This document shows, piece after piece, positions 5,498 to 18,079 of a stretch of DNA of 18,502 nucleotides. The position numbers and the translations under genes are program-made. Origin of the DNA: a bacterium (GTDB lineage: Bacteria > Bacillota > Clostridia > Christensenellales > Aristaeellaceae). The stretch's first letter is position 1; each line of letters opens with the position of its first letter. The notes under the pieces were generated by a model, which was not told the origin of the DNA, did not search any database, and saw only the letters and a list, made by a program, of their open reading frames with translations. The stretch is from assembly GCA_963624325.1 (NCBI GenBank), contig CAVFPH010000042.1:1-18502 (forward strand), in the 5' to 3' direction.

Positions 5498-7600
5498 TTA
5501 TTTATTCAGTGCGTTTGCAGCCTGTTCGCCGGCGATCTTGCCGCTTGTAGCGCCAAATGTCAACTGGGTACCGCTGAAATAGTACTGATTGTAATACACA
5601 CCATTGGTCATTGCACCGGTAGCATAAAGTCCTTCAATGATGCTTCCATCCTCACGCAGTACGTGCTGATTTGCATCCGTCACAACGCCGCCCAGCGTAT
5701 CACAGCAGCCGGGAAGAATGCGAACCAGATAATACGGACCCGCTTCGGAGATGGGAATGAGATATTCAGCTTTTTTGCCAAAGTCGATATCCTCGCCTGC
5801 CGCTACGATTTCCTTGTAGCGATTGACGGTTGCTTCAAAGGTATCGACATTCATGCCAGCCTTTTCGGCAACTTCGCGAATGCTGTCGCCCTTGATAACC
5901 TCTCCGCAGTCGATGCCCTGCTCCGCAATTTCGGCAGCCTTTTCAGACAAATCTGTATACAGGCACCAATACGGGGCGTTATTCAGCTTGAACATGGCCA
6001 TATCCTGGGAAGAATATGCCTGCGCTTCGTTCATGAAGCGGTTGCCGTCACTGTCAACAACAAGGCGGCGATAGGTTGTTTCGTCCAGACCTTCAATCGG
6101 GCTTGCATCCTGCATAAAGATGTCGCAATACATGCTCTGCGAATGCATCAGCGCGGAGCAACGCGGGCGGCCGTTGTGAATCCACTGATCCTCATACAAT
6201 GCCGCGCCGATTGCTTCGGCCATCAAAAGGCCATCGCCCGTATTGCCAACCGAGGCATAGGAGGAAACCTCGGGCAGTTCGGGGATCAAGCGGTTGAGCA
6301 GATCGGGATTTTCAGAGTAACCGCCGGTAGAAAGGATTACGCTGTCGGCATAAACGTCCAGCTCGCCTGTTTTCGTTTCAGCACGAACGCCAACCACTTT
6401 GCCATTTTCGACGATCAGTTCGGTCGCGCGCGTGTCGGTGTACAGTTCCATCCCCTGATCAATGCATTTATCTCTCAAAAGTGTCAGGAGCTTGCCTGCG
6501 CGGGTGCCTTCAGGAATGCTTTCCACATCGAGACGCACCATCGCCATTCCACGATCAGCGATTCCCTGGTAAGGGATAACGGTCGCGCCCTGTTCGACCA
6601 GCCAATTGATGGTAAACATACTCTGAACAAGCTGGAATTTCAGTCTGTCAATGTCGGGATAAATCGACTCACGGTAGCTGACACTCTGATATTCCATCCA
6701 ACGCGTGACAGCCGCATCGAGTGTATCTTCTTCTTCCGTCAGGTGATACCCTTCGTTTTCATCAACTTCGCAGATCATGAACGTGCCCAACGAATTCTTG
6801 GCACTTCCGCCGGTGATGGACAGCTTTTCCAGCATAATTACATTCGCACCCAGTTCAATGGCGCGCATGGCTGCAGTTGTACCAGATAGACCGGAGCCAA
6901 CGACAACAATGTCCGTATGCAGCACCTTGGGTTCAGCGTTCTTTTCATGAACCACCGGTGTGCTGAACTGCGCAGTCGTTGCGCCCGCCTGCGTCAGACA
7001 ATCGCGCACGGCGGATTTAATTGCATTCGTCGTCAGGCTCGCACCGGTTACTGTGTCCACACCAGTGCTCTGGTTTGCGATGATTTCCTCCGGCAATGTG
7101 TCAATTGCGATAGAGCCAATAGCGAATGTATCGAAGTTTTCGACTACTTCAATTCCGGTAATGGCGTTCTCAGATACAGTTACGGTAAGCGTAAGCAAGC
7201 CGCCGTAGCTGTTGGCCGTCGCAGTATAAGTTCCTGCAGTCATTGTTACATTGCTCTGCTGCACACCCATAATCTGGTTGTAAGCATTCTGCGCGGCGAG
7301 AAGAACCGCTTTCGAAGTAACAGTTGCACCTGTTACGCCGTCAACGTCAATGCTTCCTGTGGCCGACATGGCAGCAGACATTGTTTCAATGGCTTTTCCA
7401 CCTATTGTCGGCGTTTCATTTTCTCCGTTTATAACAACTTCCGTGATCGCGCCGTCCGTCACCGTCAGCTTTACGCTTACGACACCGCCGAAGCCCTGCG
7501 CTGCGCCTTCCGCCGTCAGGACGCCGGTTTCAGCGTTGGCGGCTGCACAGAAAGTGAAAAGCATGCAAACTACAAGAAGCCAGGACAAAAGATGCTTCAT
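5498..7600 (-). CDS. Exported FAD-dependent oxidoreductase with two N-terminal FMN_bind domains (fumarate/urocanate-reductase-like flavin reductase)
   Basis: Start trimmed to ATG 7600, preceded by GGGAGGAAAA. Signal peptide MKHLLSWLLVVCMLFTFCAAANA. Two FMN_bind-like modules carry flavinylation-type motifs DGVTGATVTS and DTVTGASLTT. The FAD dinucleotide fold reads DIVVVGSGLSGTTAAMRA...LEK, and the C-terminal motif is GLYATGAMTNG. Confidence 0.85.
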   Translation of the reverse strand: MKHLLSWLLVVCMLFTFCAAANAETGVLTAEGAAQGFGGVVSVKLTVTDGAITEVVINGENETPTIGGKAIETMSAAMSATGSIDVDGVTGATVTSKAVLLAAQNAYNQIMGVQQSNVTMTAGTYTATANSYGGLLTLTVTVSENAITGIEVVENFDTFAIGSIAIDTLPEEIIANQSTGVDTVTGASLTTNAIKSAVRDCLTQAGATTAQFSTPVVHEKNAEPKVLHTDIVVVGSGLSGTTAAMRAIELGANVIMLEKLSITGGSAKNSLGTFMICEVDENEGYHLTEEEDTLDAAVTRWMEYQSVSYRESIYPDIDRLKFQLVQSMFTINWLVEQGATVIPYQGIADRGMAMVRLDVESIPEGTRAGKLLTLLRDKCIDQGMELYTDTRATELIVENGKVVGVRAETKTGELDVYADSVILSTGGYSENPDLLNRLIPELPEVSSYASVGNTGDGLLMAEAIGAALYEDQWIHNGRPRCSALMHSQSMYCDIFMQDASPIEGLDETTYRRLVVDSDGNRFMNEAQAYSSQDMAMFKLNNAPYWCLYTDLSEKAAEIAEQGIDCGEVIKGDSIREVAEKAGMNVDTFEATVNRYKEIVAAGEDIDFGKKAEYLIPISEAGPYYLVRILPGCCDTLGGVVTDANQHVLREDGSIIEGLYATGAMTNGVYYNQYYFSGTQLTFGATSGKIAGEQAANALNK

Positions 7601-7652
7601 GGGTTTTCCTCCCTTGTTTTCAATAAACATCGACAAGCTGCTTGCGGGGCAC

Positions 7653-7690
7653 ATTATAGCACCGATGGGAAAGCAAGGGAAGTGAATTTT
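7653..7690 (-). promoter_or_regulatory. Candidate activator-dependent promoter of the reductase gene
   Basis: On the minus strand, TGcTATAAT (TATAAT = 7658..7653) is a perfect extended -10, but there is no good -35 hexamer 16 to 18 nt upstream. Confidence 0.45.
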
Positions 7691-7734
7691 TTGCAATGTG
7701 TCTTATGCTTAGCGTTGCAAAAAGCGCAACGATT

Positions 7735-8634
7735 TTACAATTCGCGGAAGACACGCACATAAGAATCCGCAGCATAAGAAATCAGCGGATTGTTATTGCG
7801 CTTTTTATAAAGCAAGCAAAAGCATGTGTCAACCGGCGGCATATCCAGGAACGGACGTGCAACCAAGGAATCCGGAAGATTGCGCAGCACACCGGCAGAA
7901 AAAATTGAAACACCCCGCCCGGAAAGTACGGGCCATAGAATATCGTCACGGCTATAGGGGCGCACAATTACGTTGGGCGCGTTTCCCTTCCATGTACACC
8001 CCTGAATAATCGCGTCATATAGTATGGGGCTTCGTTCTCTCTCCCACATGAAAAGCGGCTGCCCGGCCAGATCGGCCGCGGTGAGCCCCTGCTTTTCTGC
8101 AAGCGGAGAATTGGCAGAAACTGCAACCATAAACGGAACGTTTTTCAGCGGAACACAAACAAGCGTATCGTCCATCGTCTGCAAAGCCGCCCTGAATCCC
8201 AGCAGCAGATCCAGCTTATCCGTTTTCAAATCTTCGCAGGCAGAAGGACGGTATGATCGAGTCAAACTGATTTTAGCGTCGGGAAAGCGGCTGCACAGGT
8301 CGTGAAAAGTTTGCATGATAATGTCCGGAAAGCTCATGTTCAGCATGGCGATTCTTATTTCATTCGCCCCGTTTTCGACAGTCTGGTGCAGTGCCATCCG
8401 TGTTTCGTCATATGCGTCCATCATCTTTTGCGCATGTTCACGAAATACACTTCCGGCGTTGGTCAACGACATTACGCCTGCATGGCGTTCAAACAGCTTT
8501 ACCCCGAATTCTTCTTCCAGATGTGCAATCTGTCTGCTTGCAGTAGATGGGCTGATAAACATCCGGTTGGCAGCATCGGTGATGTTCAAGTGTTCCGCAA
8601 CCATAAGAAAGCAAGCCAGGCTTTCCATATTCAT
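7735..8634 (-). CDS. LysR-family transcriptional regulator
   Basis: N-terminal HTH LNITDAANRMFISPSTASRQIAHLEEEFGVKLFER, followed by a LysR-type substrate-binding domain of appropriate length. The start is probably ATG 8634 (MNMESL...), downstream of GAGGAAA. The tracked ORF begins at a GTG at 8652. Confidence 0.85.
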   Translation of the reverse strand: MNMESLACFLMVAEHLNITDAANRMFISPSTASRQIAHLEEEFGVKLFERHAGVMSLTNAGSVFREHAQKMMDAYDETRMALHQTVENGANEIRIAMLNMSFPDIIMQTFHDLCSRFPDAKISLTRSYRPSACEDLKTDKLDLLLGFRAALQTMDDTLVCVPLKNVPFMVAVSANSPLAEKQGLTAADLAGQPLFMWERERSPILYDAIIQGCTWKGNAPNVIVRPYSRDDILWPVLSGRGVSIFSAGVLRNLPDSLVARPFLDMPPVDTCFCLLYKKRNNNPLISYAADSYVRVFREL

Positions 8635-8695
8635 ATCGTATCGTTTCCTCACTTTAGATATGGGTTTATTGAAAGGCCCGAGCGGCCATCAGGCT

Positions 8696-8718
8696 GCTTT
8701 TCATTGCGAAAAGCGCCG
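8696..8718. repeat. Copy 2 of the identical 23-nt hairpin repeat; possible bidirectional terminator
   Basis: Exact match to 5396..5418. It lies between the stop of the 8733..9242 gene and the LysR start. The T-run (TTATTTTTT) is on the plus-strand side only. Confidence 0.85.
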
Positions 8719-8732
8719 GTATTCTTATTTTT

Positions 8733-9242
8733 TCAGTTGTATTTGGCCGTCACGCTCATCGGAATTCCCCAAATGTAATAGGTGATTTTGAAGCTGCGCG
8801 ATACCTGGTGTTCTTCCTGATTTTGTATGCTTGTAAGCACCACAATCCATGCATCGTTTTCGCTTCCCGCGGAAACAACCGTGTTGGCATTGGCCTGCGA
8901 AGCATCCGAGGTAGCATAGGCCAGCACATCGCCGTTGGCGGGAATGGGCTGTATCTCCACCATTTCGGCATCAATCAGGCCGCCGTTGCGCAGGCGGAAT
9001 GTATAGGTAAAAAAGCTATAGTCCGCCGCCGTTCCGGGAACGCTTTCGGCAAACGCCGTACCGCTGAGCGCCCCCCGGTCCACTGCCGTCTGCAGGGCGA
9101 TGAATTCGCTGGTATTGCTTCCGGCTGCCGTGGCCTTCAGTTCAATCGATACCACCTGCAGTTTTGCATTGGCATAGGTGTAGATGCCCAGCCCCGCGGC
9201 AATCACCACCAGGACAATCATAAAAATCGCGACATATTTCAT
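8733..9242 (-). CDS. Small N-terminally membrane-anchored protein, unknown family (third gene of the stator-like operon)
   Basis: The ATG lies 6 nt after the stop of the upstream gene, with GGAG 9 nt upstream. TM anchor VAIFMIVLVVIAAGLGIYTY, then about 140 aa with a beta-rich-looking composition. Confidence 0.6.
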   Translation of the reverse strand: MKYVAIFMIVLVVIAAGLGIYTYANAKLQVVSIELKATAAGSNTSEFIALQTAVDRGALSGTAFAESVPGTAADYSFFTYTFRLRNGGLIDAEMVEIQPIPANGDVLAYATSDASQANANTVVSAGSENDAWIVVLTSIQNQEEHQVSRSFKITYYIWGIPMSVTAKYN

Positions 9243-9248
9243 ACTTTT

Positions 9249-10247
9249 TTACTCCAATGAGGACAAAATGCTGTTCATCTGCTCAATCATTTCCGCATCC
9301 TTTAAGCGGAATTTGATCTCCACACGGCGGGAACGCTCCTGATCCTCCGCGCCGTTTTCATCGTAAATCGGATCCGAAAAGCTGCGTCCCTGCGCGGTAA
9401 TGATGGACTGCAGGCGTGTCTTCTGCGCTTCGGTCAGGGTGCTCATGTTCAGGCAGTATTTGGCCACATTCAGCGCACGGTTCTGCGACAGCTCCAGGTT
9501 ATGCTCATAGCTGCCGGTAGAGTCCGTATGCCCTTCGATGATGATCTCGGCCACATAATCCCGATACTCATCCTGCAAAAGCACGCTCAGGTAGACGGGA
9601 ATCAGGCGGTTGAGCTGGGATAGTCCTTCGGGCTTTAGCGTGCTGCTGCCTGTCTCAAACATCAGCGTGCTGTCCAGCACGATATCGCCGGTATTTTCAT
9701 CCACCGTTGCGGAAATCCGTGCGGCAGCCAGCTGTGTGCTCAGTTCCTCCACAATGCGCGTGCGGATGCCCAGTATGTTGCTGATCTGCATCTGGTAATT
9801 GCTCAGTTCCTGTTCCTGATTGGCCAGCACCAACTGCATGGCATCAATGCGGTTCTGCTGATCGGCCAGATCGGCTTCCTTGAGCACAATCTGCGCCAGC
9901 AGCTCTTCATTTTCAGCCTCGCGCTCACTCAGCTTCACTTGGGCGGCATTGAGATCCTGCTCCTTTGTATCCAGCTGAATCTGGATAGCGGACAGCTCTT
10001 CTTCCTTGCCCATCAGCTCCACCCGCGTTGTCTCCAGATCCTGTTCCTTTTGGCTTAGGGTAATCTGCGCGGCATCCAGCTGCGTCTGCTGCTCTCCCAC
10101 CTGATCCAGCAGCGTATAATAATGATAAATGCACAGGGTAATGGCCAGTATGAACATCAGCAGCAGCGAACACATCATATCCGAATAGGATATCCAGTGT
10201 GTACCGCCGTCGCCGCCCCGGCGCGCACGGCTCAAGTGTCTGCTCAT
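9249..10247 (-). CDS. MotB/ZorB-like protein: TM plug with conserved Asp, long coiled coil, C-terminal OmpA-like peptidoglycan-binding domain
   Basis: Start trimmed to ATG 10247, preceded by AAGGAGG and 2 nt after the upstream stop. MotB-type segment HWISYSDMMCSLLLMFILAI (Asp23). Heptad-like E/K/Q/L stretch of roughly 120 aa with repeated KEQDL. OmpA-like motifs IIIEGHTDSTGSYEHNLELSQNRALNVAKY and RSRRVEIKF. Confidence 0.85.
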   Translation of the reverse strand: MSRHLSRARRGGDGGTHWISYSDMMCSLLLMFILAITLCIYHYYTLLDQVGEQQTQLDAAQITLSQKEQDLETTRVELMGKEEELSAIQIQLDTKEQDLNAAQVKLSEREAENEELLAQIVLKEADLADQQNRIDAMQLVLANQEQELSNYQMQISNILGIRTRIVEELSTQLAAARISATVDENTGDIVLDSTLMFETGSSTLKPEGLSQLNRLIPVYLSVLLQDEYRDYVAEIIIEGHTDSTGSYEHNLELSQNRALNVAKYCLNMSTLTEAQKTRLQSIITAQGRSFSDPIYDENGAEDQERSRRVEIKFRLKDAEMIEQMNSILSSLE

Positions 10248-10249
10248 GC

Positions 10250-11851
10250 TCAGGCCTCCTTGCTTGCCTGCTGCGTCAACGCTTCTCCTGCCGTCTGCAT
10301 GCATGCCGACATATCGCCCAGCGCACGCTGTAATTTGGACAAAGCGGAAATAACCCCCTCGGTGCCTGCGTTCAGGCGCTCGGTTTTATCCGCATAGGCG
10401 CCCTGCGCTGCCTTGGCCGTTTTTTCGATGCTTTCCAGCTTGCCGTCCAGCAGGGACACCATTGCATGCATATTTTCTTCAAACAGCCCCATGGTGCGCG
10501 ACAGTCCGCCGCTGATGTTCTCCACAAAGGATGTATAGCTCTGGCTGAGCTCCCGGCTGCTGTCCCGCATGGCCGCGGAAATCTGCTTGCTGTCCGCCCC
10601 CGATGCATCGGCCTGCTGGTGCACAGCCTCCAGCACACGCCCGCTCCACTGGGCGTATTCCTGCATGCTGCTCTGCAGCTGTTCATGCCCCGAGCGCAAG
10701 GTCATCATATAATCGGTCTGCTCCTGCACAGCTGCGTGCATGGCGTTTAGCAGATCCTGCGTCTTTTGCGCAAAATCCCCCTGCTGGCCGCTGATGGACG
10801 CGGCATCCGCCTCGTATTCCGCCATGCGGTCGGCAATCTGATGCATCAGCGTGCCGACATCCTGCATGCTGTCCATGATGGCCGATGCCGCCTGCAGGGA
10901 AGTATTGAGCGTATCATAATCCATGCGCTGCGATTGATTGATGGCCGTCAGGGTTTGTCCAAGCTGGGTAAACTGCCCGCCCAGCGCCCCGTTCATGCGG
11001 CTGATAAACGCCCCGACCAGCTGATTCAGCCCGTCAATCTGCGTCTGTGTCTGCCCGGCGATGAAGTTATTCATGGATTGTGCCACAGGCACCAGGCTCT
11101 TTTCCACCGCGGTGGTCATGCTGCTGCTTACGCGGTCGCCGATTTCCGTTACCGCATGGCGCAGGAACGCCGCGCGGTCCTCCTGCTGACAGATTGCCTG
11201 CACATTGTCGCTGAGGGGCTGCTGCATCACAAACTCCGTAAAGGCCTCATAAAACTCATCCAGTGCCTTTTGCGCCGATCCGATTGCGGCATGGTTCAAA
11301 ATATTGAAGGCCAGGGAGCAGGAGCAGCCTGCAATGGATGTGCCGAATGCAAAGTTCATGCCGTTGATCATATCCGATATGCCCGCCATGGTGCTGGCGG
11401 CATCCGACAGATCCAGTGCTCCCAGACCGCGCACAAGTCCGACAAATGTGCCCAGAATGCCCAGCGATGTCAGAATGCCCGGTATCACCTCACCCAGCTG
11501 GGTATGGCAATGGGCATATATGACGGTGTCATCGTTAATATAATCTTCCACGTTGCAGTTCATGCCGCGGCTGTCCAATTGTTCCGCATTTACCAGAAAG
11601 CGCTTCCACGCCGTGTGCATGCGCTTGCCAAGGAACATCGGATCCTGCCACACCGGATGCCCGACATCCTTGATGGTCATCATTTCCAGCCGATGCACCG
11701 CGCGGCGCAGGGCACGTGCGCAGGATCGGCATACAAATGTGCACTTGAAAAAGCCCGTCAGGCACACAATCGCAATGGCGCCATATATCAATAAATCAAT
11801 CAGGCTTCCGGCAGAGAAAATCCCCGAAATTTTTTGCGCAAAATCCTGCAT
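10250..11851 (-). CDS. MotA/ExbB/TolQ-family channel protein with a long C-terminal helical tail (ZorA-like architecture)
   Basis: RBS GGGAGGAAGG. TM1 at residues 16..36, then a basic Cys-rich loop. TM2 carries the MotA/ExbB-type motif GILTSLGILGTFVGL. TM3 is FAFGTSIAGCSCSLAFNIL. About 340 aa of Q/S/A/M-rich, helix-looking sequence then runs to the C-terminus. Confidence 0.8.
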   Translation of the reverse strand: MQDFAQKISGIFSAGSLIDLLIYGAIAIVCLTGFFKCTFVCRSCARALRRAVHRLEMMTIKDVGHPVWQDPMFLGKRMHTAWKRFLVNAEQLDSRGMNCNVEDYINDDTVIYAHCHTQLGEVIPGILTSLGILGTFVGLVRGLGALDLSDAASTMAGISDMINGMNFAFGTSIAGCSCSLAFNILNHAAIGSAQKALDEFYEAFTEFVMQQPLSDNVQAICQQEDRAAFLRHAVTEIGDRVSSSMTTAVEKSLVPVAQSMNNFIAGQTQTQIDGLNQLVGAFISRMNGALGGQFTQLGQTLTAINQSQRMDYDTLNTSLQAASAIMDSMQDVGTLMHQIADRMAEYEADAASISGQQGDFAQKTQDLLNAMHAAVQEQTDYMMTLRSGHEQLQSSMQEYAQWSGRVLEAVHQQADASGADSKQISAAMRDSSRELSQSYTSFVENISGGLSRTMGLFEENMHAMVSLLDGKLESIEKTAKAAQGAYADKTERLNAGTEGVISALSKLQRALGDMSACMQTAGEALTQQASKEA

Positions 11852-11969: not shown

Positions 11970-12656
11970 TTATATATCGTATTTCAGGCAGATCCGCTCC
12001 AGCTTTTCACCGATCGGGCGGCTGAGCAGGGCAAGATACAGCACGTTGGCAACGATGTAGGATACTGTGTGCGGCAGGGCCGAAAGGAGTGCCGCTCCGT
12101 AAAGGCCCAGACTGAACGTGCCGTGATACCACAGTACCGTCCAGATATCCATGATAAAGGAATAGGCTGCCCCCGCAATCAGACCGCAAAACATCAGCAT
12201 TCCGCGGCTCTTTTTCAGCGTGCGGGACAGATAGCCTGCAATCAGCCCGATCATCCCCCATGCAAACATCTGGAAGGGGGTCCATGGCCCCTGCCCAAAA
12301 TAGAAATTGCTGATTGCCGCGCTGAGCGCGCCCACAAGAAAGCCCGATTCTCCGCCCAGGTACATGCCCGTCAGAATTGTCATGGCCGTCACGGGCTTCA
12401 GCAGCGGAATAAACCGCCCGGCTGCCGTCAGCGCCGTCAAAGCGGAAACCAGCACCAGCCGCCGATGTCCCGTGCGCCTGTGTTCAAAGCCTGCGGCAAA
12501 CAGCACCAGCGCGCACACGGCAATCAGCCAGGCAATCAGCGCGTAGTGCTTTTCCCGCAGCAGAAATACACCCGCCGCAACCAGGGCGGGAACAATCAGG
12601 AACGGAATCGCGCGGCGCAGAATACGGCGGGTGCGGGCATTTCGGATCACTATCAC
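11970..12656 (-). CDS. ECF transporter S (substrate-capture) component, candidate corrinoid-specific
   Basis: Polytopic hydrophobic protein, including FYFGQGPWTPFQMFAWGMIGLIAG. There is no in-frame ATG near the upstream stop. GTG 12656 overlaps the ATPase stop as GTGA, and a second GTG lies at 12650. It is the last gene of the riboswitch-controlled operon. Confidence 0.7.
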   Translation of the reverse strand: MIVIRNARTRRILRRAIPFLIVPALVAAGVFLLREKHYALIAWLIAVCALVLFAAGFEHRRTGHRRLVLVSALTALTAAGRFIPLLKPVTAMTILTGMYLGGESGFLVGALSAAISNFYFGQGPWTPFQMFAWGMIGLIAGYLSRTLKKSRGMLMFCGLIAGAAYSFIMDIWTVLWYHGTFSLGLYGAALLSALPHTVSYIVANVLYLALLSRPIGEKLERICLKYDI

Positions 12657-14281
12657 AGCTGTTTTTCTGCCTCCTTGATGCGAAGCGATGCAATCTCCTC
12701 TGCGCAGATTGCCGTATCGCAGATGCCGCGCGCCATCCTGTTGGCCGGGGTTGTGTAATAGTGATTTCCCGCAAAAAATGCATGCGGCTCGGCGCACGCA
12801 ACAATTTCTCCCCTGAAAAGCAGAGCGCAGCGGTCGGCACATGCCGCGGCAAAAGAAACATCATGTGTTACACACAGCACCGTCAACCCTTTGCTGCGAA
12901 GCGCCCGAAGCAGCTCCGTCATTTTTTCGCACGCAAAGGCATCCAGCCCCTTGGTGGGCTCATCCAGCAGCAAAAGTTTCGGGTGTGCCGCCAGTGCCCT
13001 GCACAAGGCCAGCGCCTGCTGCTCTCCGCCCGACAGATCATAAGGGTGCCGTTTCAGCAAAGGCGTAAAATCCATGGGAAAGTTTTCGGTATCGGCGTGT
13101 GATTTTTTCAGTTCCTCCTCCACCGTGCTGTGCATAAAAAGCGTCTGCACATCCTGCGGCAGCAGCGCAAGGCAGTCCCGGTAAAGCGTTTGTCCCGTAT
13201 AGGCCCGTTGTTTTTTCCCGAATATCATGATATTTCCCGCATACGGCCGCTGGAGCCGCGCCGCGCAGGCAAGCGCTGTGGATTTTCCGGAGCCGTTTCC
13301 GCCCAGCAGGCAGAAGATCTCCCCCGTATGAACTGTCAAATTCAGGCCGCGCAGTACATCGGGCACATTGCGCTCATAGCGGAAATAAACATCCTTCATT
13401 TCCAGAGCCGGCGGCGTATCGGCAGCAGCGCCTCCTCCAAAGGTCGGCCTATCGCCAATCAGCCTTTGGCTTTCCAGCATGCGCCTGCCCTCCCGCACGG
13501 TTAGCGGGCAATCGGCTGCATGCCACATTTCCGCCACGCGTGCGGCAGCCGGCATTGCTTTGGACAGCACGGGATGTCCGCGCAGCTCGGATACAACCTT
13601 TCGGGTTTCACCATCGGCAATCAGGCAGCCACCCTCCATGGCAAGCATTTTGCCCGACAGCGGAACGGCCTCCTCCAGCCGATGCTCAATCAGCAGGACC
13701 GTCAGGGACAATTCCCGGTTGAGCCGCTGCAAAGTAGATAAAAAGCTGCCCACCGCTATCGGATCCAGCTGCGCCGTCGGCTCATCCAGCAAAAGGATAT
13801 CAGGCTGCATCACCATCACGGCCGCCAGGCAGAGCAGCTGCTGCTGTCCGCCGGAAAGGGAAGCTGTATCCCGTCCAAACCAATCCTCAATGCCGAAATA
13901 GCAGGCTGTTTCGGCCACTCTTTGCCGAATCACCGTCTGCGCAAGTCCCATATTTTCAAGCCCGAAGGCCAGCTCGTGCCACACTTTGTCCGTCACAATC
14001 TGCTGCTGCGGATGCTGCGAAACAAAGCCGATGCGGCAGGCGCTCTCCCGCTCGGACATGTCACCAATCGGCTTTCCGTTATACAGAATCTCCCCCGTCA
14101 TCGTCCCTTTCGGGGCGATTTCCCGCTTCAGGCACCGCAGAAGGGTGGACTTTCCGCTGCCGGTTGCTCCGCACAGGATGCAAAAATCCCCCTTATCCAG
14201 TTTGAAGGAAACCTGCTTTACCGCCTGATTGCCGCATTGCGGATAGGAAAAGCTTAAATTTTTGACCTCAAGCAGTGCCAT
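12653..14281 (-). CDS. ECF transporter ATPase, fused duplicated nucleotide-binding domains (EcfA1A2-like)
   Basis: RBS GGAGGAG. Two Walker A motifs (GATGSGKST, GGNGSGKST), two ABC signatures (LSGGQQQ, LSGGEQQ) and two Walker B motifs (LLLDEPT twice). Confidence 0.9.
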   Translation of the reverse strand: MALLEVKNLSFSYPQCGNQAVKQVSFKLDKGDFCILCGATGSGKSTLLRCLKREIAPKGTMTGEILYNGKPIGDMSERESACRIGFVSQHPQQQIVTDKVWHELAFGLENMGLAQTVIRQRVAETACYFGIEDWFGRDTASLSGGQQQLLCLAAVMVMQPDILLLDEPTAQLDPIAVGSFLSTLQRLNRELSLTVLLIEHRLEEAVPLSGKMLAMEGGCLIADGETRKVVSELRGHPVLSKAMPAAARVAEMWHAADCPLTVREGRRMLESQRLIGDRPTFGGGAAADTPPALEMKDVYFRYERNVPDVLRGLNLTVHTGEIFCLLGGNGSGKSTALACAARLQRPYAGNIMIFGKKQRAYTGQTLYRDCLALLPQDVQTLFMHSTVEEELKKSHADTENFPMDFTPLLKRHPYDLSGGEQQALALCRALAAHPKLLLLDEPTKGLDAFACEKMTELLRALRSKGLTVLCVTHDVSFAAACADRCALLFRGEIVACAEPHAFFAGNHYYTTPANRMARGICDTAICAEEIASLRIKEAEKQL

Positions 14282-15129
14282 TGAATGCGTTCTCCTCCTT
14301 CCGCCAGGGCAGGCAGCAGGCAGAGCATGCCGTACGCGGCCATCACTGCCTGCGCGGGTAAAGAATGTTCGGATGCCGTGATCTCAGGATAATATTCAAA
14401 CCGCAGGCTGCCGCTGAAAATCCCCCACAGCGCCGCCGCCGTCAGAATCAGCGAAATGCTCAAAAAAGCCGCATCCGCCCGCGTGAACCGAAATATTGCA
14501 TACCGTGTTCTGCGGCCCGTGCCATAGCCACGCGCCGCCATGCTGTCCGCCGTAACAATCCCGTTTTCCAGTGCCCAGGTTGTCAGAATGGAAAATTCCC
14601 GTGCGCGCCCCGCTGCCGCGTCGGGCAGGTTTTCATCCCGATATAATCCCAGCCCAAGCTGCGCCCGATGAATGCGCTCTCCCTGCCGCGCAAAAAGCGG
14701 CACAAACCGCAGTGCCATGCTGACCGTCAAGGCAAAGGACGGGGATATCCCTCCCAGCAGATACAGCAGCTTATCGCTTGTCAGCGTGGCGCTCAGCAGC
14801 CGAAACCAGCCGATCATGCCCACAATCATGCCGGATGCCGCCATGCCGTATAAGAGCGCCTCCAGCGTGAAGGGCCGATCGTTGATGACAAACAGCACCG
14901 TTACGCCGTCATGATAAAAAAGCGGGTTCAGCAGTGACATCAGTAGAAAAATCATTATGCCCGCAGCCGCCATGCGCAGGCTCATCCTGCCATGAAGCAG
15001 CAAAAGCATCGTGCATCCGAGCAGCGACAGGACAATCAGCGCGGGATGCAGAGACAGCATGCCAATGCTCATGACGCCCGCAAAATAGCAAAGCTCGGTG
15101 ACGGGATGCAGTTTTTCCAGCCCTCTCAT
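14254..15129 (-). CDS. ECF transporter transmembrane T component (CbiQ/EcfT family)
   Basis: Start trimmed to ATG 15129, preceded by GGGAGGAA. Polytopic membrane protein in the position expected beside the ECF ATPase. It overlaps the ATPase start by 28 nt. Confidence 0.85.
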   Translation of the reverse strand: MRGLEKLHPVTELCYFAGVMSIGMLSLHPALIVLSLLGCTMLLLLHGRMSLRMAAAGIMIFLLMSLLNPLFYHDGVTVLFVINDRPFTLEALLYGMAASGMIVGMIGWFRLLSATLTSDKLLYLLGGISPSFALTVSMALRFVPLFARQGERIHRAQLGLGLYRDENLPDAAAGRAREFSILTTWALENGIVTADSMAARGYGTGRRTRYAIFRFTRADAAFLSISLILTAAALWGIFSGSLRFEYYPEITASEHSLPAQAVMAAYGMLCLLPALAEGGERIQWHCLRSKI

Positions 15130-15142
15130 TTTGTTCCTCCCG

Positions 15143-16714
15143 TCACGTAAAATCCCGCCCCATATCGCAGGTATACAGCCACTCGATCTTATCTCCGTCC
15201 GACAGCTGATATTCGCCGCAGCCGACATTCGGAATTTCGCCGTTTACGCGGTACATCCATCCGGACAGCTCACCAAAGTCAAACTCATAAAGGTGGCAGA
15301 TGCCCGCCACATAGGCAGATGTGCCGCTTCGGCTGTCCAATTGCAGCTTGTTTTCCCGAACGGCTCTTACCAAAACATCGTAAACCGTATCCCCCTGCGA
15401 AATTGCATAAGTTGTTTCCGCAAGGATGATGCCGTTCTCCGGGATATAGCGTGCATCGGTCTGCCCCTTCACGGTGTCGCAGCGGATGGTCAGCATCACA
15501 CTGTCGACGCTCTCTGATGTGTTTGCCGTCGCCGCTGCGTAGTAGTCCGATGCGCTTTCGATGCGCAGGGAGCACAGCACCGCCGCCAGCGCGATGCAGA
15601 TCACCCATACCGCAATATAATTTTTGACGTTCCGTTTTTTTGCAAGGAACAGCAGGAGGCCTGCAAGCAAACCGGCAGCGGCAATCGCAATCACCGCCCA
15701 GGCCTTCCAGCCCGGATGCACAGCAGAAGATGCTGTCTCTGTCGTTTGCGCATCCAGATGATAGAACGCGCCGCGTCCGCTTTGAAAGCGTTCCAGGGCA
15801 ATCAGGGCACTGAGTGCCTGCACGGTTGCTATGCTGCTCTTTTCGCCGTTTTCGGCATGGGAAAAACTGTTGTCCGCCAGCTGATAGCGAAGCATCGCAT
15901 CCGTCACCGTACAGCCGTTTTTGATAAACCTTTCGTCGCTTGCCGGGTCGATATTCAGGGCGCATAGGGCAATGATCACCTGTGCTGCACTTTCGCAGTT
16001 CGGCGTGCCCATGCTGCAGTAACCTCCGCTCTCGGTCTGGATTTTGCTGAGCAGCGCAAGGGCATTGTCAACGGCTGTCCGGACATCATCCGAATCGGAT
16101 GCATAAGGGGCAAGTGCCTGCAGTGCCATTGCCGTTACATCGGCATCCGCCTGTGCCCCCATCACTGCCCAGCCGCCGTCCGAAAGCTGCAGGCTCAGCA
16201 GTCCCGAGATGGCCTGCTCTATTTCTTCATCCGTACTTTCTGGCAGGTTGCTCAGCAGATGCAATCCGTAAATCCAGCTCATAACGCCCTGTCTGCCGAT
16301 ATCCTCGTTTCGTGCGCAGGATACAAAGGGATGATCCGCACGGCCGCAGGCCGCAAGCACCAGGGCCAGTTTCAGCCTTGTCGCCGCGCCTGCAGGCGGC
16401 GATGTTTCCACAAATTGCTGCAGTGCATCGGCATAGGCAGAATAGTCCGGGCCCGATATATACTGATGCAGCGCCAGCACGTACCACTCGGCATTTCCGC
16501 CGATATCCTCACACAAAGCACCATTCAGCCATGCCTGCACACTGTCTGCTCCGTCGGCAGCTTGCTCGGATGCCAGGATTTCGTCAATCCGCTGTGCCTC
16601 CGACGGCGCTGCCGCCTGTCCGCATCCGGCACAAACAAGCAAAAACAGCCCCAGCAAAAGGGCAGCCATGCACCTTTTGCCAAGGCTGAAACGTATTGTT
16701 TGAGCAGTCATCAT
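15143..16714 (-). CDS. Lipoprotein-like surface protein: prenyltransferase/terpene-cyclase-like alpha/alpha-toroid, TM hairpin, C-terminal DUF4430 (transcobalamin-like beta domain)
   Basis: ATGA overlap with the upstream gene. Signal peptide with Cys (LFLLVCAGCGQ). Toroid-repeat motifs LQLSDGGWA and IQTESGGYC. Two TM helices at residues about 336..383, flanking KKRNVKN. The C-terminus carries DUF4430-like LSGWMYRVNGE...LSDGDKIEWLY. Confidence 0.8.
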   Translation of the reverse strand: MMTAQTIRFSLGKRCMAALLLGLFLLVCAGCGQAAAPSEAQRIDEILASEQAADGADSVQAWLNGALCEDIGGNAEWYVLALHQYISGPDYSAYADALQQFVETSPPAGAATRLKLALVLAACGRADHPFVSCARNEDIGRQGVMSWIYGLHLLSNLPESTDEEIEQAISGLLSLQLSDGGWAVMGAQADADVTAMALQALAPYASDSDDVRTAVDNALALLSKIQTESGGYCSMGTPNCESAAQVIIALCALNIDPASDERFIKNGCTVTDAMLRYQLADNSFSHAENGEKSSIATVQALSALIALERFQSGRGAFYHLDAQTTETASSAVHPGWKAWAVIAIAAAGLLAGLLLFLAKKRNVKNYIAVWVICIALAAVLCSLRIESASDYYAAATANTSESVDSVMLTIRCDTVKGQTDARYIPENGIILAETTYAISQGDTVYDVLVRAVRENKLQLDSRSGTSAYVAGICHLYEFDFGELSGWMYRVNGEIPNVGCGEYQLSDGDKIEWLYTCDMGRDFT

Positions 16715-17406
16715 GCCGCCTGCTGATCGGCCTCATCGGCAGCGATCACGCAGCAGGGGGGCACCAGCGTCATGCTTTCACTGGTTGCGCTGACCACATC
16801 GCCCGCGCTGACGGTGATAACGGCCATTCCGTTTTCATCCGTCTTGACGCCGGTGGAAATGCCGTTTACGGTAATTTCCGCATCCGCAACGGGGGAAGCT
16901 ACAGGCGCATAGGTAACAGGATCAAAGCCGATGGCGGAAAGCGTCAGGGTTACTTCGCCGGCAGCTGCGGTGTTCACATCAAAGTAGGTATAGGTATCGG
17001 ACCATGTGACAAGATCGCTGTACACATAGGCCGTTACATAGTCGCCGTCGCTGAGCGCATCGGACAAGCCCATGGCCATGCTGTTGTTGACATAGTAACC
17101 ATAGGAACCGCCGTTTTCAACGCCCCACAGGCGGGTAATCATCAGGCCGTAGCTGCCCATCTCGGCGGTAAATCCCGCCTCGGCGCCGCCTTCAAAGGCA
17201 TCCTCATGCGCCAGATACAGGGCATCGGCGATGGTCAGGGCGCCGTCCTCATCGGCATCGGTCAGGGTTACGGGATGCTGTACCAGCACAAGCCCGTCGC
17301 AGGCGATGGTAACATAAACAGTCGGCGCCGCTTCCTCGGCCACAGCGGCAGGAAGCAAGGACAGCATCAGCATCAGGGCAAGAACAAGGGAAGTTGCTTT
17401 TTTCAT
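16711..17406 (-). CDS. Secreted DUF4430 (transcobalamin-like beta domain) protein with a C-terminal Ig-like/beta-sandwich module
   Basis: RBS AAGGAG. Signal peptide MKKATSLVLALMLMLSLLPAAVA. DUF4430-like pattern VYVTI...TIADAL...ITRLWGVENGGSYGYYVNN...LSDGDYVTAYVY, then EITVNGISTGVKTDENGMAVITV. Confidence 0.8.
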   Translation of the reverse strand: MKKATSLVLALMLMLSLLPAAVAEEAAPTVYVTIACDGLVLVQHPVTLTDADEDGALTIADALYLAHEDAFEGGAEAGFTAEMGSYGLMITRLWGVENGGSYGYYVNNSMAMGLSDALSDGDYVTAYVYSDLVTWSDTYTYFDVNTAAAGEVTLTLSAIGFDPVTYAPVASPVADAEITVNGISTGVKTDENGMAVITVSAGDVVSATSESMTLVPPCCVIAADEADQQAA

Positions 17407-17741
17407 GGTTCATTTTCTCCTTTTTGTATTTCGGATAGCGCGCAGGATGCGCGGAAATCCCGATTTTTCATTTGCTTTTCTATTTTGCACTGCGTGGCGC
17501 GGCGGCGCTGAAGAATGCGCTTTTCCATGCGTTTTTCGCGTCTGTCGGGATCACGCGGCGGCTTGATGCCCGCCGCCTCCAATGCGCGCGGCCACGGGCC
17601 CAGAAAAGCCTTGATCGCCGCCACCTGTTCGGGCAGGAAATCGTCCCTTTTCGGATATCGGCTTTCTCCCCGTGCCGACAGGGTATCGCGCATATCCGTA
17701 AGCAGACGGATGGCGCTGACGCGGTCATACTGCCCCTTCAT
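17403..17741 (-). CDS. Small basic protein with a homing-endonuclease-associated-repeat-like domain; first ORF after the riboswitch
   Basis: Start trimmed to ATG 17741, preceded by GGGAGGA. The segment PKRDDFLPEQVAAIKAFLGPWPRALEAAGIK resembles the HNH_repeat consensus (...FGSW..AL..AGL). Arg/Lys-rich C-terminal half. ATGA overlap with the downstream gene. Confidence 0.55.
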   Translation of the reverse strand: MKGQYDRVSAIRLLTDMRDTLSARGESRYPKRDDFLPEQVAAIKAFLGPWPRALEAAGIKPPRDPDRREKRMEKRILQRRRATQCKIEKQMKNRDFRASCALSEIQKGENEP

Positions 17742-17754
17742 GCATCCTCCCAAT

Positions 17755-17795
17755 AAAAAAGCCGTTCTTCGCCTTTGGCGAGAACAGCGCAACAG
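17755..17795 (-). terminator. Riboswitch expression-platform terminator
   Basis: On the minus strand: GCTGTTCTCGCC-aaa-GGCGAAGAACGGC, an imperfect stem with a one-base bulge, followed by TTTTTT. It sits immediately before the RBS of the first ORF. Confidence 0.6.
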
Positions 17796-17894
17796 CCATG
17801 TCAATCAAGCGCCATCGGCCTTGGCCGAAAAGCGCACAAAACACAGGCGGCTGCGCTTTTCAAAAACCAAAAGCCGCTGGCAGATGCCAGCCTC

Positions 17895-18015
17895 CGCAGG
17901 CATGCTTGGCAAGTATCCCGACTTACGGGCAATCACCCGATCACGGTAATGGTTGTTGCGACGGATTTTCACCGAACTTCCCTCTCATCCGATTTCTCGG
18001 AACCAAGCACGCTGA
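17895..18015 (-). promoter_or_regulatory. Cobalamin riboswitch aptamer (compact form)
   Basis: On the minus strand: AGGGAA (17983..17978), GGTGAAAATCC (17973..17963) and the B12-box-like AGTCGGGATACTTGCC (17923..17908). P1 pairing is TGCTTGG (18009..18003) with CCAAGCA (17909..17903). Confidence 0.75.
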
Positions 18016-18050
18016 ATGTTCAATTGTTTGTCCGCATTGCGGACGCGCAC

Positions 18051-18079
18051 AGTATAGCATGAAAAATTTTTTGCGTCAA
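18051..18079 (-). promoter_or_regulatory. Sigma-A-type promoter of the riboswitch-controlled operon
   Basis: On the minus strand: TTGACG (18079..18074), a 17-nt spacer, then TATACT (18056..18051). Confidence 0.7.

Follow-up and report, generated by a model that had tools for sequence, protein, structure and literature searches.

The window analysed here, meaning the whole stretch of 18,502 nucleotides (nt) at positions 1 to 18,502 of contig CAVFPH010000042.1 (assembly GCA_963624325.1), carries an operon of six minus-strand genes that lie downstream of a promoter, a cobalamin riboswitch and a terminator-like hairpin. The genes encode, in this order, a small basic protein, a secreted protein of 231 amino acids (aa), a membrane-tethered protein of 523 aa that is predicted to resemble transcobalamin (TC), and the T, A and S components of an energy-coupling factor (ECF) transporter. 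We consider it likely that the operon serves the scavenging and import of corrinoids, the vitamin B12 family, in an uncultured, Gram-positive gut Clostridium. All features of the operon and its leader are on the minus strand.

The leader and the layout of the operon

A consensus scan placed a promoter of the sigma-70 type at 18051..18079, with TTGACG, a 17-nt spacer and TGcTATACT, the latter containing an extended -10. It scores 10 of 12 consensus matches in addition to the extended -10 TG, and its hexamers have been kept in L001 and L002, two related loci whose proteins are only 66-77% identical. The promoter is followed by an aptamer at 17891..18022, which is the sole Rfam match in the whole window. 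The match is to the Cobalamin riboswitch family RF00174 of clan CL00101; it spans model positions 1-189 and scores 50.6 bits (E 3.3e-10), where the gathering score is 31.5. The full-length model is matched by a short form of the aptamer, the 58-position P6 extension being cut to 5 nt. Compared with L001 and L002, the stems P1 and P2 contain multiple changes on both strands with the pairing retained, as read from the alignment.

Directly adjacent to the aptamer, at 17862..17891, both a terminator scan and the sequence itself revealed an intrinsic-terminator-like hairpin. It consists of GCTGGCATCTGCCAGC at 17891..17876 (stem, loop and stem: GCTGGC-ATCT-GCCAGC) and the subsequent T tract GGCTTTTGGTTTTT. 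The stem is kept in L001 and L002 and the loop is variable; moreover, the hairpin forms part of the minimum-free-energy fold of the leader. The leader as a whole (311 nt) folds better than 100 out of 100 shuffled sequences (z = -4.1), shows about 91% column identity to those of L001 and L002, and shares with them an identical layout of promoter, aptamer, hairpin and first gene. The leader therefore holds a bona fide cobalamin riboswitch aptamer and a terminator-like hairpin, where the hairpin is presumably the off-switch of the riboswitch. The existence of a cobalamin riboswitch had been claimed in an earlier note on this DNA, and the covariance-model match bears it out.

The remainder of the leader (17742..17861) contains two further hairpins that are conserved in the alignment with L001 and L002. 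The first has a perfect 10-bp stem, GAAAAGCGCA...TGCGCTTTTC. The second is again terminator-like, and its T run ends just 5' of the GGAGG that serves as ribosome-binding site for the first gene. These hairpins may represent a second attenuator or be connected to RNA processing.

The six genes are tightly packed, as was established for every junction on the bases. ATGA overlaps connect the small gene (17403..17741) to the gene of the 231-aa protein (16711..17406), and the latter to the gene of the 523-aa protein (15143..16714). A gap of 13 nt that contains a GGGAGG ribosome-binding site separates the 523-aa gene from the T gene (14254..15129), the T and A genes (the latter at 12653..14281) overlap by 28 nt, and a GTGA overlap joins the A gene to the S gene (11970..12656), which starts with GTG. 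A GGAGG-like ribosome-binding site is found at the start of every gene in the operon except that of the 523-aa protein. The six genes are translationally coupled. Both the order of promoter, riboswitch, terminator and six genes on the minus strand, and the exact junctions, had been described before; the scans and gene calls reproduced the former, and the latter were all verified base by base. In addition, an independent gene call on contig CAVEEU010000015.1 of the public assembly GCA_963614755.1, which contains this stretch, yielded identical products of 112, 231, 523 and 291 aa.

A dedicated ECF transporter with a CbrT-like S component

The T component (291 aa) belongs to the CbiQ family. It matches PF02361 with 26.3 bits, just above the cut-off of 25, and its gene is syntenic in the related loci. 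The A component (542 aa) is a fused A1-A2 ATPase with two ATP-binding cassettes: PF00005 matches in two stretches (E 4.8e-55), and the best NCBIfam models are ECF_ATPase_1 (291 bits) and ECF_ATPase_2 (282 bits), both scores being under the equivalog cut-offs. The S component (228 aa) has Pfam matches to ECF-ribofla_trS, DUF6580 and ECF_trnsprt (PF07155/PF12822). The labels of T, fused A1A2 and S that had been given to these proteins earlier are thus confirmed by the Pfam and NCBIfam matches.

A phmmer comparison of the S component with the PDB gave a match to 6fnp_A (E 5.2e-8, query residues 64-206) and to no other chain below E = 1. The matched chain is a 182-aa 'Membrane protein' from entry 6FNP, the structure of ECF-CbrT, and from its length and its entry we infer that it is CbrT itself. 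According to hydropathy, the S component of the window has extra N-terminal hydrophobic helices at residues 15-33 and 39-57. The CbrT family is listed in TCDB as 3.A.1.32, "Cobalamine Precursor (B12-P)", and includes members with 6 or 8 transmembrane (TM) segments (PMC3654945); the two extra helices fit the members with 8 segments.

Judged by sequence, T, A and S form a group I (dedicated) ECF transporter with an S component homologous to CbrT. In line with a group I assignment, the genes of S, T and the protein with two PF00005 stretches overlap or abut in one operon, and this cluster is kept in the relatives. The role of ECF-CbrT as cobalamin transporter was predicted in silico by Rodionov et al. 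2009, as cited in PMC5997447. The purified transporter was shown to import cyanocobalamin and cobinamide in an ATP-dependent manner, and hemin was no competitor (PMC5997447). The specificity of the S component is therefore indicated by two things, the homology to CbrT and the riboswitch, and the match to 6FNP overturns the earlier statement that the riboswitch alone implies it.

The membrane-tethered 523-aa protein

The 523-aa protein (15143..16714) matches DUF4430 (PF14478) over residues 441-515 with 64.4 bits against a cut-off of 23.8 (E 1.3e-17), and the Prenyltrans toroid of Pfam over residues 147-310 (E 5.8e-7). An AlphaFold2 model, built with an alignment of 61 relatives, has a mean pLDDT of 89. 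From the N-terminus it shows a single helix, then a helical toroid (39-311), then a pair of long helices (336-357 and 363-382), and finally a C-terminal domain rich in beta structure. On this basis, the protein can be divided into a toroid at about 39-311, a TM hairpin at about 336-385 and a DUF4430/SLBB beta domain at about 404-515. In a Foldseek comparison of the model with the PDB, each of the top 14 hits is a transcobalamin, an intrinsic factor or a haptocorrin (E 1e-8 to 7e-7), with 476-531 aligned columns that span both domains, and the terpene cyclases that rank after them match the toroid alone. The modelled protein has the two-domain architecture of transcobalamin, that is, an alpha/alpha toroid combined with a beta-grasp DUF4430 domain. 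An enzymatic reading, in which the protein is a cyclase or prenyltransferase, was considered and dropped because of the extracytoplasmic location, the fusion to DUF4430, and the fact that the structural matches of the whole model are cobalamin carriers.

The linker between the two domains is a conserved feature of the family. Exactly two strongly hydrophobic TM segments were found in all 61 aligned relatives, and the loop between the two helices, KKRNVKNY in the protein of the window, is conserved among these relatives as KKRxxKN[FY]. A membrane hairpin thus takes the place of the flexible linker of transcobalamin. Since the protein has an N-terminal signal or anchor helix and two TM helices with the positive loop inside, the simplest topology is one where the toroid and the beta domain are both outside and are joined through the membrane.

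The protein had been described earlier as a lipoprotein with a toroid and a DUF4430 domain. The domain composition stands, as the Pfam match to DUF4430 makes clear, and the lipoprotein label is not supported. Neither VCAGC nor LLVC conforms to the PROSITE-like lipobox pattern [LVI][ASTVI][GAS]C expected where a signal peptide ends, and a lipobox is present in only 12 of the 61 relatives.

The secreted 231-aa protein

The acidic 231-aa protein (16711..17406) has a clear signal peptide and no Pfam match. DUF4430 was absent in 61 of its relatives even at E<=1, and likewise among the 120 homologues listed for the protein, for which the precomputed Pfam assignments are PF13715/PF13620 or nothing. 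The relatives do show recurrent weak CarboxypepD_reg/transthyretin-like matches in the C-terminal half, and 7 of the 61 carry an LPXTG anchor. Searches of the PDB with the sequence, with the family profile and with a profile of the N-terminal domain (N-domain) gave nothing relevant and no TC match. The idea that the 231-aa and 523-aa proteins are recognizable paralogues had to be dropped, because hhalign found no relation between the two families.

The AlphaFold2 model of the protein (pLDDT 93.6) combines an N-terminal beta-grasp (about residues 29-142) with a C-terminal beta-sandwich that is transthyretin/CarboxypepD_reg-like. The best Foldseek matches of the N-domain are beta domains of TC, such as 7qbg_A (E 0.008) and 5no0 (E 0.018, TM-score 0.54). 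A profile search for the N-domain (window positions 16972..17328) in 1.84 billion proteins yielded a family of 1229 cluster representatives, in which His67, Trp94 and Asn107 are invariant. Many of the members are large surface proteins, 500-3700 aa long, in which the domain occurs two to five times. When eight of these were scanned against Pfam, SLH, dockerin or Ig-like domains turned up in them, and in two cases (P0383 and P0389) a true DUF4430 is present in another part of the protein. Considering the null results of the sequence tests, the likeness in fold and the co-occurrence, we read the N-domain as a separate beta-grasp family that has no Pfam model and accompanies DUF4430. The earlier claim of two transcobalamin-like surface proteins with DUF4430 therefore holds for the 523-aa protein, on account of Pfam and Foldseek; for the 231-aa protein it fails at the level of sequence, and a possible likeness in predicted fold, with weak E-values, is what is left.

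Conservation of the operon type

The tethered protein has at least 973 relatives. A sample of 80 genome loci that encode such relatives, all of them from Clostridia and mostly from gut and rumen metagenome-assembled genomes (MAGs), was used to determine the gene order by tblastn. In most of the loci the order is 231-523-T-A-S, and in five (L010, L012, L013, L038 and L057) it is T-A-S-231-523. The synteny of the five core genes spans MAGs of Oscillospiraceae, Ruminococcus, Lachnospiraceae and Acutalibacteraceae. In several loci (L016, L058 and L061) the genes of the surface proteins were found without T, A and S alongside. Altogether, operons of this type are frequent among Clostridia of the gut and rumen.

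The distribution of the riboswitch was surveyed with an nhmmer profile made from 18 Rfam-confirmed aptamers; 73 of the 80 loci offer 500 nt or more of sequence before the operon. A riboswitch-like element was detected in 55 of the 80 loci, on the coding strand only and at a distance of 85-630 nt on the 5' side of the first operon gene. Rfam, applied at the gathering score to 24 of these loci, identified a cobalamin-clan riboswitch in 17, in each case at the 5' end and on the coding strand. The element precedes the first gene in either gene order, which means that in the loci that begin with T-A-S it is located before T. The two halves appear to be regulated separately in L033, because each is preceded by its own riboswitch-like element (5884..6015 and 8644..8769, plus strand), one before the genes of the surface proteins and the other between the homologue of the 523-aa protein and ecfT.

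The small protein encoded by the first gene

The first gene (17403..17741) encodes a protein of 112 aa with a pI of 10.1 and a Lys/Arg-rich tail, and without signal peptide or TM segment. It contains one unit that resembles a homing-endonuclease-associated repeat, with an invariant FLGPWPRALEAAG motif. The match to PF18780 (E 6e-4) is under the cut-off, and some homologues do reach this model; PHROG and NCBIfam gave no matches. The protein has about 550 homologues of about 100 aa, whose alignment shows an invariant KAFLGPWPRALEAAG(I/L)K core followed by the Lys/Arg-rich tail. A match of human Prp17 to the family profile (E 3e-4) was judged to be due to chance, as it involves an FLGPW motif plus a basic low-complexity tail.

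In all four distinct loci that were looked up (L083-L087) the small gene is the first gene of a CbrT-type ECF operon. In L084/L085 it is accompanied by T-A-S and not by genes for surface proteins. The small protein therefore tracks the transporter and not the surface proteins.

The presence of the small gene also coincides with the form of the aptamer. All 11 related loci that have the gene (L001-L004, L006, L007, L018, L048, L058, L070 and L071) have a short aptamer of less than 160 nt without the P6 extension. Among the loci that do not have it, 37 have a long, class-I aptamer of about 200 nt, 7 have a short one and 25 gave no match. The association may reflect common ancestry only.

Neighbouring genes

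The S gene is followed, after a gap of 118 nt in which no terminator was found, by a ZorA-like gene (10250..11851, minus strand; PADLOC ZorA1, E 5e-25) and a ZorB/OmpA-like gene (9249..10304, minus strand; PADLOC ZorB1, E 1e-70). After the latter comes a gene for a 169-aa membrane protein without matches (8733..9242). No effector resembling ZorC, ZorD or ZorE is encoded in the window. The two Zor-like genes were considered as members of the operon and excluded, because they are absent beside all 80 related operons and match models of defence systems.

The following genes of the window have no relation to the operon. A 732-aa flavoprotein with FMN_bind and FAD_binding_2 (5498..7696, minus strand) is of the fumarate-reductase-like extracytoplasmic reductase type, and its gene adjoins that of a LysR-type regulator (7735..8652, minus strand). 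Further upstream are genes for a Cthe_2159 carbohydrate-binding protein, a NAGPA phosphodiester glycosidase and a truncated histidine kinase.

Proposed role and alternatives

The different features suggest the following sequence of events. At high intracellular cobalamin levels the riboswitch would bind cobalamin, the terminator would form and the operon would be off, and when cobalamin is scarce transcription would read through. The tethered protein would then clamp a corrinoid beside the membrane between its outward-facing toroid and beta domains, in the fashion of transcobalamin, with the secreted beta-grasp/Ig-like 231-aa protein acting as a second binder or as a partner. The ligand would be handed to the CbrT-like S component. 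By analogy, the S component should topple within the scaffold formed by T, powered by the ATP that the fused A1A2 hydrolyses, and release the corrinoid in the cytoplasm. The small basic protein could be a conserved cytoplasmic accessory of this type of ECF transporter.

The earlier note had read the operon as a system for corrinoid capture and import with two DUF4430 binders. The functional reading is well supported by the riboswitch and its recurrence in related loci, the homology to CbrT and the predicted fold of the 523-aa protein; of the two DUF4430 binders one is left. Scavenging and import of corrinoids is, as said, what we consider likely. A more specific picture can be drawn, in which the operon is a Gram-positive counterpart, made of other components, of the cobamide relay of Bacteroides: a transcobalamin docked by its hairpin that hands its ligand directly to a CbrT-type ECF transporter, a second corrinoid binder that is secreted and carries the beta-grasp domain without a Pfam model, and a small cytoplasmic protein that is a hitherto unrecognized subunit or regulator of CbrT-type ECF modules. 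We put this forward tentatively, as it is rather doubtful that all of its parts are right.

Several observations weigh against the capture of corrinoids by the surface proteins and their delivery to the transporter. The root-mean-square deviation between the model of the 523-aa protein and TC is 8-15 A, and the two domains of the model may be oriented differently relative to each other. In terms of sequence, PDB sequence and profile searches place the toroid nearest to terpene cyclases and prenyltransferases; the profile search gave no TC, and no match to the eukaryotic cobalamin-binding alpha domain of Pfam was obtained at E<=0.01. The hhalign comparison of the 231-aa family with the DUF4430-bearing 523-aa family gave a probability of 5%, and the Foldseek E-values of the 231-aa protein are weak (0.008-0.05) despite probabilities of 0.96-1.0. 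About a quarter of the loci with sufficient upstream sequence have no riboswitch. The hand-off of a substrate to an ECF S component by a binder, be it soluble or tethered, is not known to have an experimental precedent. Finally, an operon of like composition in L. sakei has been linked to heme and not to B12 (10.1101/864751).

Most of the probability that we do not assign to a complete capture-and-import system goes to the possibility that the transporter imports corrinoids and that the surface proteins bind them without feeding CbrT, for instance as an extracellular reservoir, as competitive sequestrants, as proteins that strip B12 from carriers of the host or of other microbes, or as structural partners of the ECF complex. 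ECF S components are themselves high-affinity binders with no known need for accessory binders, and ECF-CbrT works in liposomes without partners (PMC5997447). Each half of the operon can also occur by itself, as the small gene plus T-A-S in L084/L085 and as surface-protein genes without T, A and S in L016, L058 and L061, and BtuJ1 of Bacteroides has been described as a reservoir. Nevertheless, the genes of the surface proteins are translationally coupled to the ECF genes in the window, the two sets are syntenic under one riboswitch in most loci, and the conserved TM hairpin holds the TC-like protein in the very membrane of the transporter. All in all, a role of the surface proteins apart from the transporter seems improbable to us.

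A substrate other than a corrinoid has also been considered, heme being the main rival. In L. sakei, deletion and overexpression of lsa1836-1840 changed the uptake of heme, and heme was docked into a modelled alpha/beta heterodimer (10.1101/864751). Moreover, heme-specific ECF transporters are known in staphylococci and streptococci (PMC7299338). By extension, the operon of the window could be a system for heme or another non-corrin tetrapyrrole. However, it is preceded, as are 55 of its 80 relatives, by a riboswitch that senses cobalamin and not heme; its S component is homologous to CbrT, and hemin did not compete for transport by CbrT (PMC5997447); the window contains no iron- or heme-related genes; and a riboswitch is not mentioned for L. 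sakei (10.1101/864751). Because of the riboswitch and the homology to CbrT, heme is a very unlikely substrate here. About as improbable is the import of cobalt or of a B12 precursor or fragment (cobinamide, an incomplete corrinoid or a lower-ligand base) in place of complete cobamides: the TCDB name of the CbrT family (PMC3654945), the binding of cobinamide by CbrT (PMC5997447), the CbiQ/CbiO-like T and A components and the wording 'B12 or its precursors' of Burroughs et al. (PMC1796856) speak for it, but a clamp of the transcobalamin type is suited to a whole corrinoid (PMC1796856), an S component of the CbiM/CbiN cobalt type is absent, and precursors are to a large part covered by the term corrinoids as we use it for the preferred reading.

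Comparison with known systems

Microbes of the gut and rumen compete for cobamides. Dominance in the human distal gut is shared by Firmicutes and Bacteroidetes, and the machinery with which Bacteroides captures cobamides at its surface has by now been described in detail. In a 2026 review the extracellular capture of cobamides by Gram-positive bacteria was called "entirely uncharacterized" (PMC13616437). This agrees with the statement of the earlier note that accessory binders of ECF transporters have not been characterized biochemically, which appears to be true, and a functional study of bacterial DUF4430 was not found in the literature. Because the tethered protein has at least 973 relatives and all 80 loci are from Clostridia, mostly of the gut and rumen, the operon family is an obvious candidate for the missing Gram-positive machinery, and it makes a good starting point for work on it. 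If the more specific picture given above is right, the transporter would be the first of the ECF type shown to have extracytoplasmic substrate-binding partners. ECF transporters have been defined by their independence of soluble binding proteins, and a proven hand-off from a transcobalamin-like protein to CbrT would change the way textbooks set them apart. Such a result would be relevant, too, for the proposed Gram-positive origin of the animal transcobalamins.

One of the closest known systems is the ECF-CbrT of Lactobacillus delbrueckii (6FNP; Santos et al. 2018, PMC5997447), which has a homologous S component and is likewise an ABC importer of the ECF type. The CbrT of L. delbrueckii is a group-II S component with six TM helices, which makes use of a shared, general EcfAA'T module and has no accessory surface proteins. 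In contrast, the system of the window has a dedicated group I module with fused ATPases and two extra helices in S, and its operon also encodes two proteins outside the cytoplasm and a small one inside it. According to Santos et al., the group I type is the one that Rodionov et al. 2009 predicted in silico.

Transcobalamin, intrinsic factor and haptocorrin share with the 523-aa protein the combination of an alpha6/alpha6 toroid and a beta-grasp, the beta domain being of the DUF4430 type. The sequence identity is 10-13%, however, the toroid is nearer to terpene cyclases in sequence, and the linker is a membrane hairpin. The delivery would be different as well, since the eukaryotic proteins deliver to an endocytic receptor and the 523-aa protein would feed an ECF transporter.

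The system of L. sakei (Lsa1836-1840; Verplaetse et al., 10.1101/864751) has an S component, a fused AA', a T component and secreted proteins that are beta-like and alpha-like. The component lists, on which the comparison is based, agree; in L. sakei, however, alpha and beta are separate proteins and the reported substrate is heme. The relay formed by BtuG, BtuH, BtuJ and BtuK in Bacteroides (10.1101/2025.07.01.662609; PMC13616437; PMC6143338) is similar in that riboswitch-controlled surface proteins of a gut commensal capture cobamides and hand them on to a membrane transporter. Nevertheless, the folds are unrelated where they are stated (BtuJ is a jelly roll), and the relay is part of a Gram-negative outer-membrane TonB system that feeds BtuFCD.

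The arrangement itself was anticipated by Burroughs, Balaji, Iyer and Aravind in 2007 (PMC1796856), who described operons that combine CbiO/CbiQ genes with those of a toroid+SLBB protein and of another extracellular SLBB protein, and inferred that they serve the scavenging of B12 or its precursors in Gram-positive bacteria. Its novelty had thus been overstated in the earlier note, given that both the operon type and the B12-scavenging function had already been predicted. In the text of PMC1796856 there is no mention of a riboswitch, of an S component or of a TM hairpin between toroid and SLBB, and the second surface protein of the window, unlike that of the published operons, is not a paralogue that can be detected by sequence. 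The additions to the published descriptions are the universally conserved membrane hairpin, the separate and widespread beta-grasp family and the small conserved product of the first gene. The locus is therefore not a new kind of system; it is a clean and well-delimited example of a predicted one.

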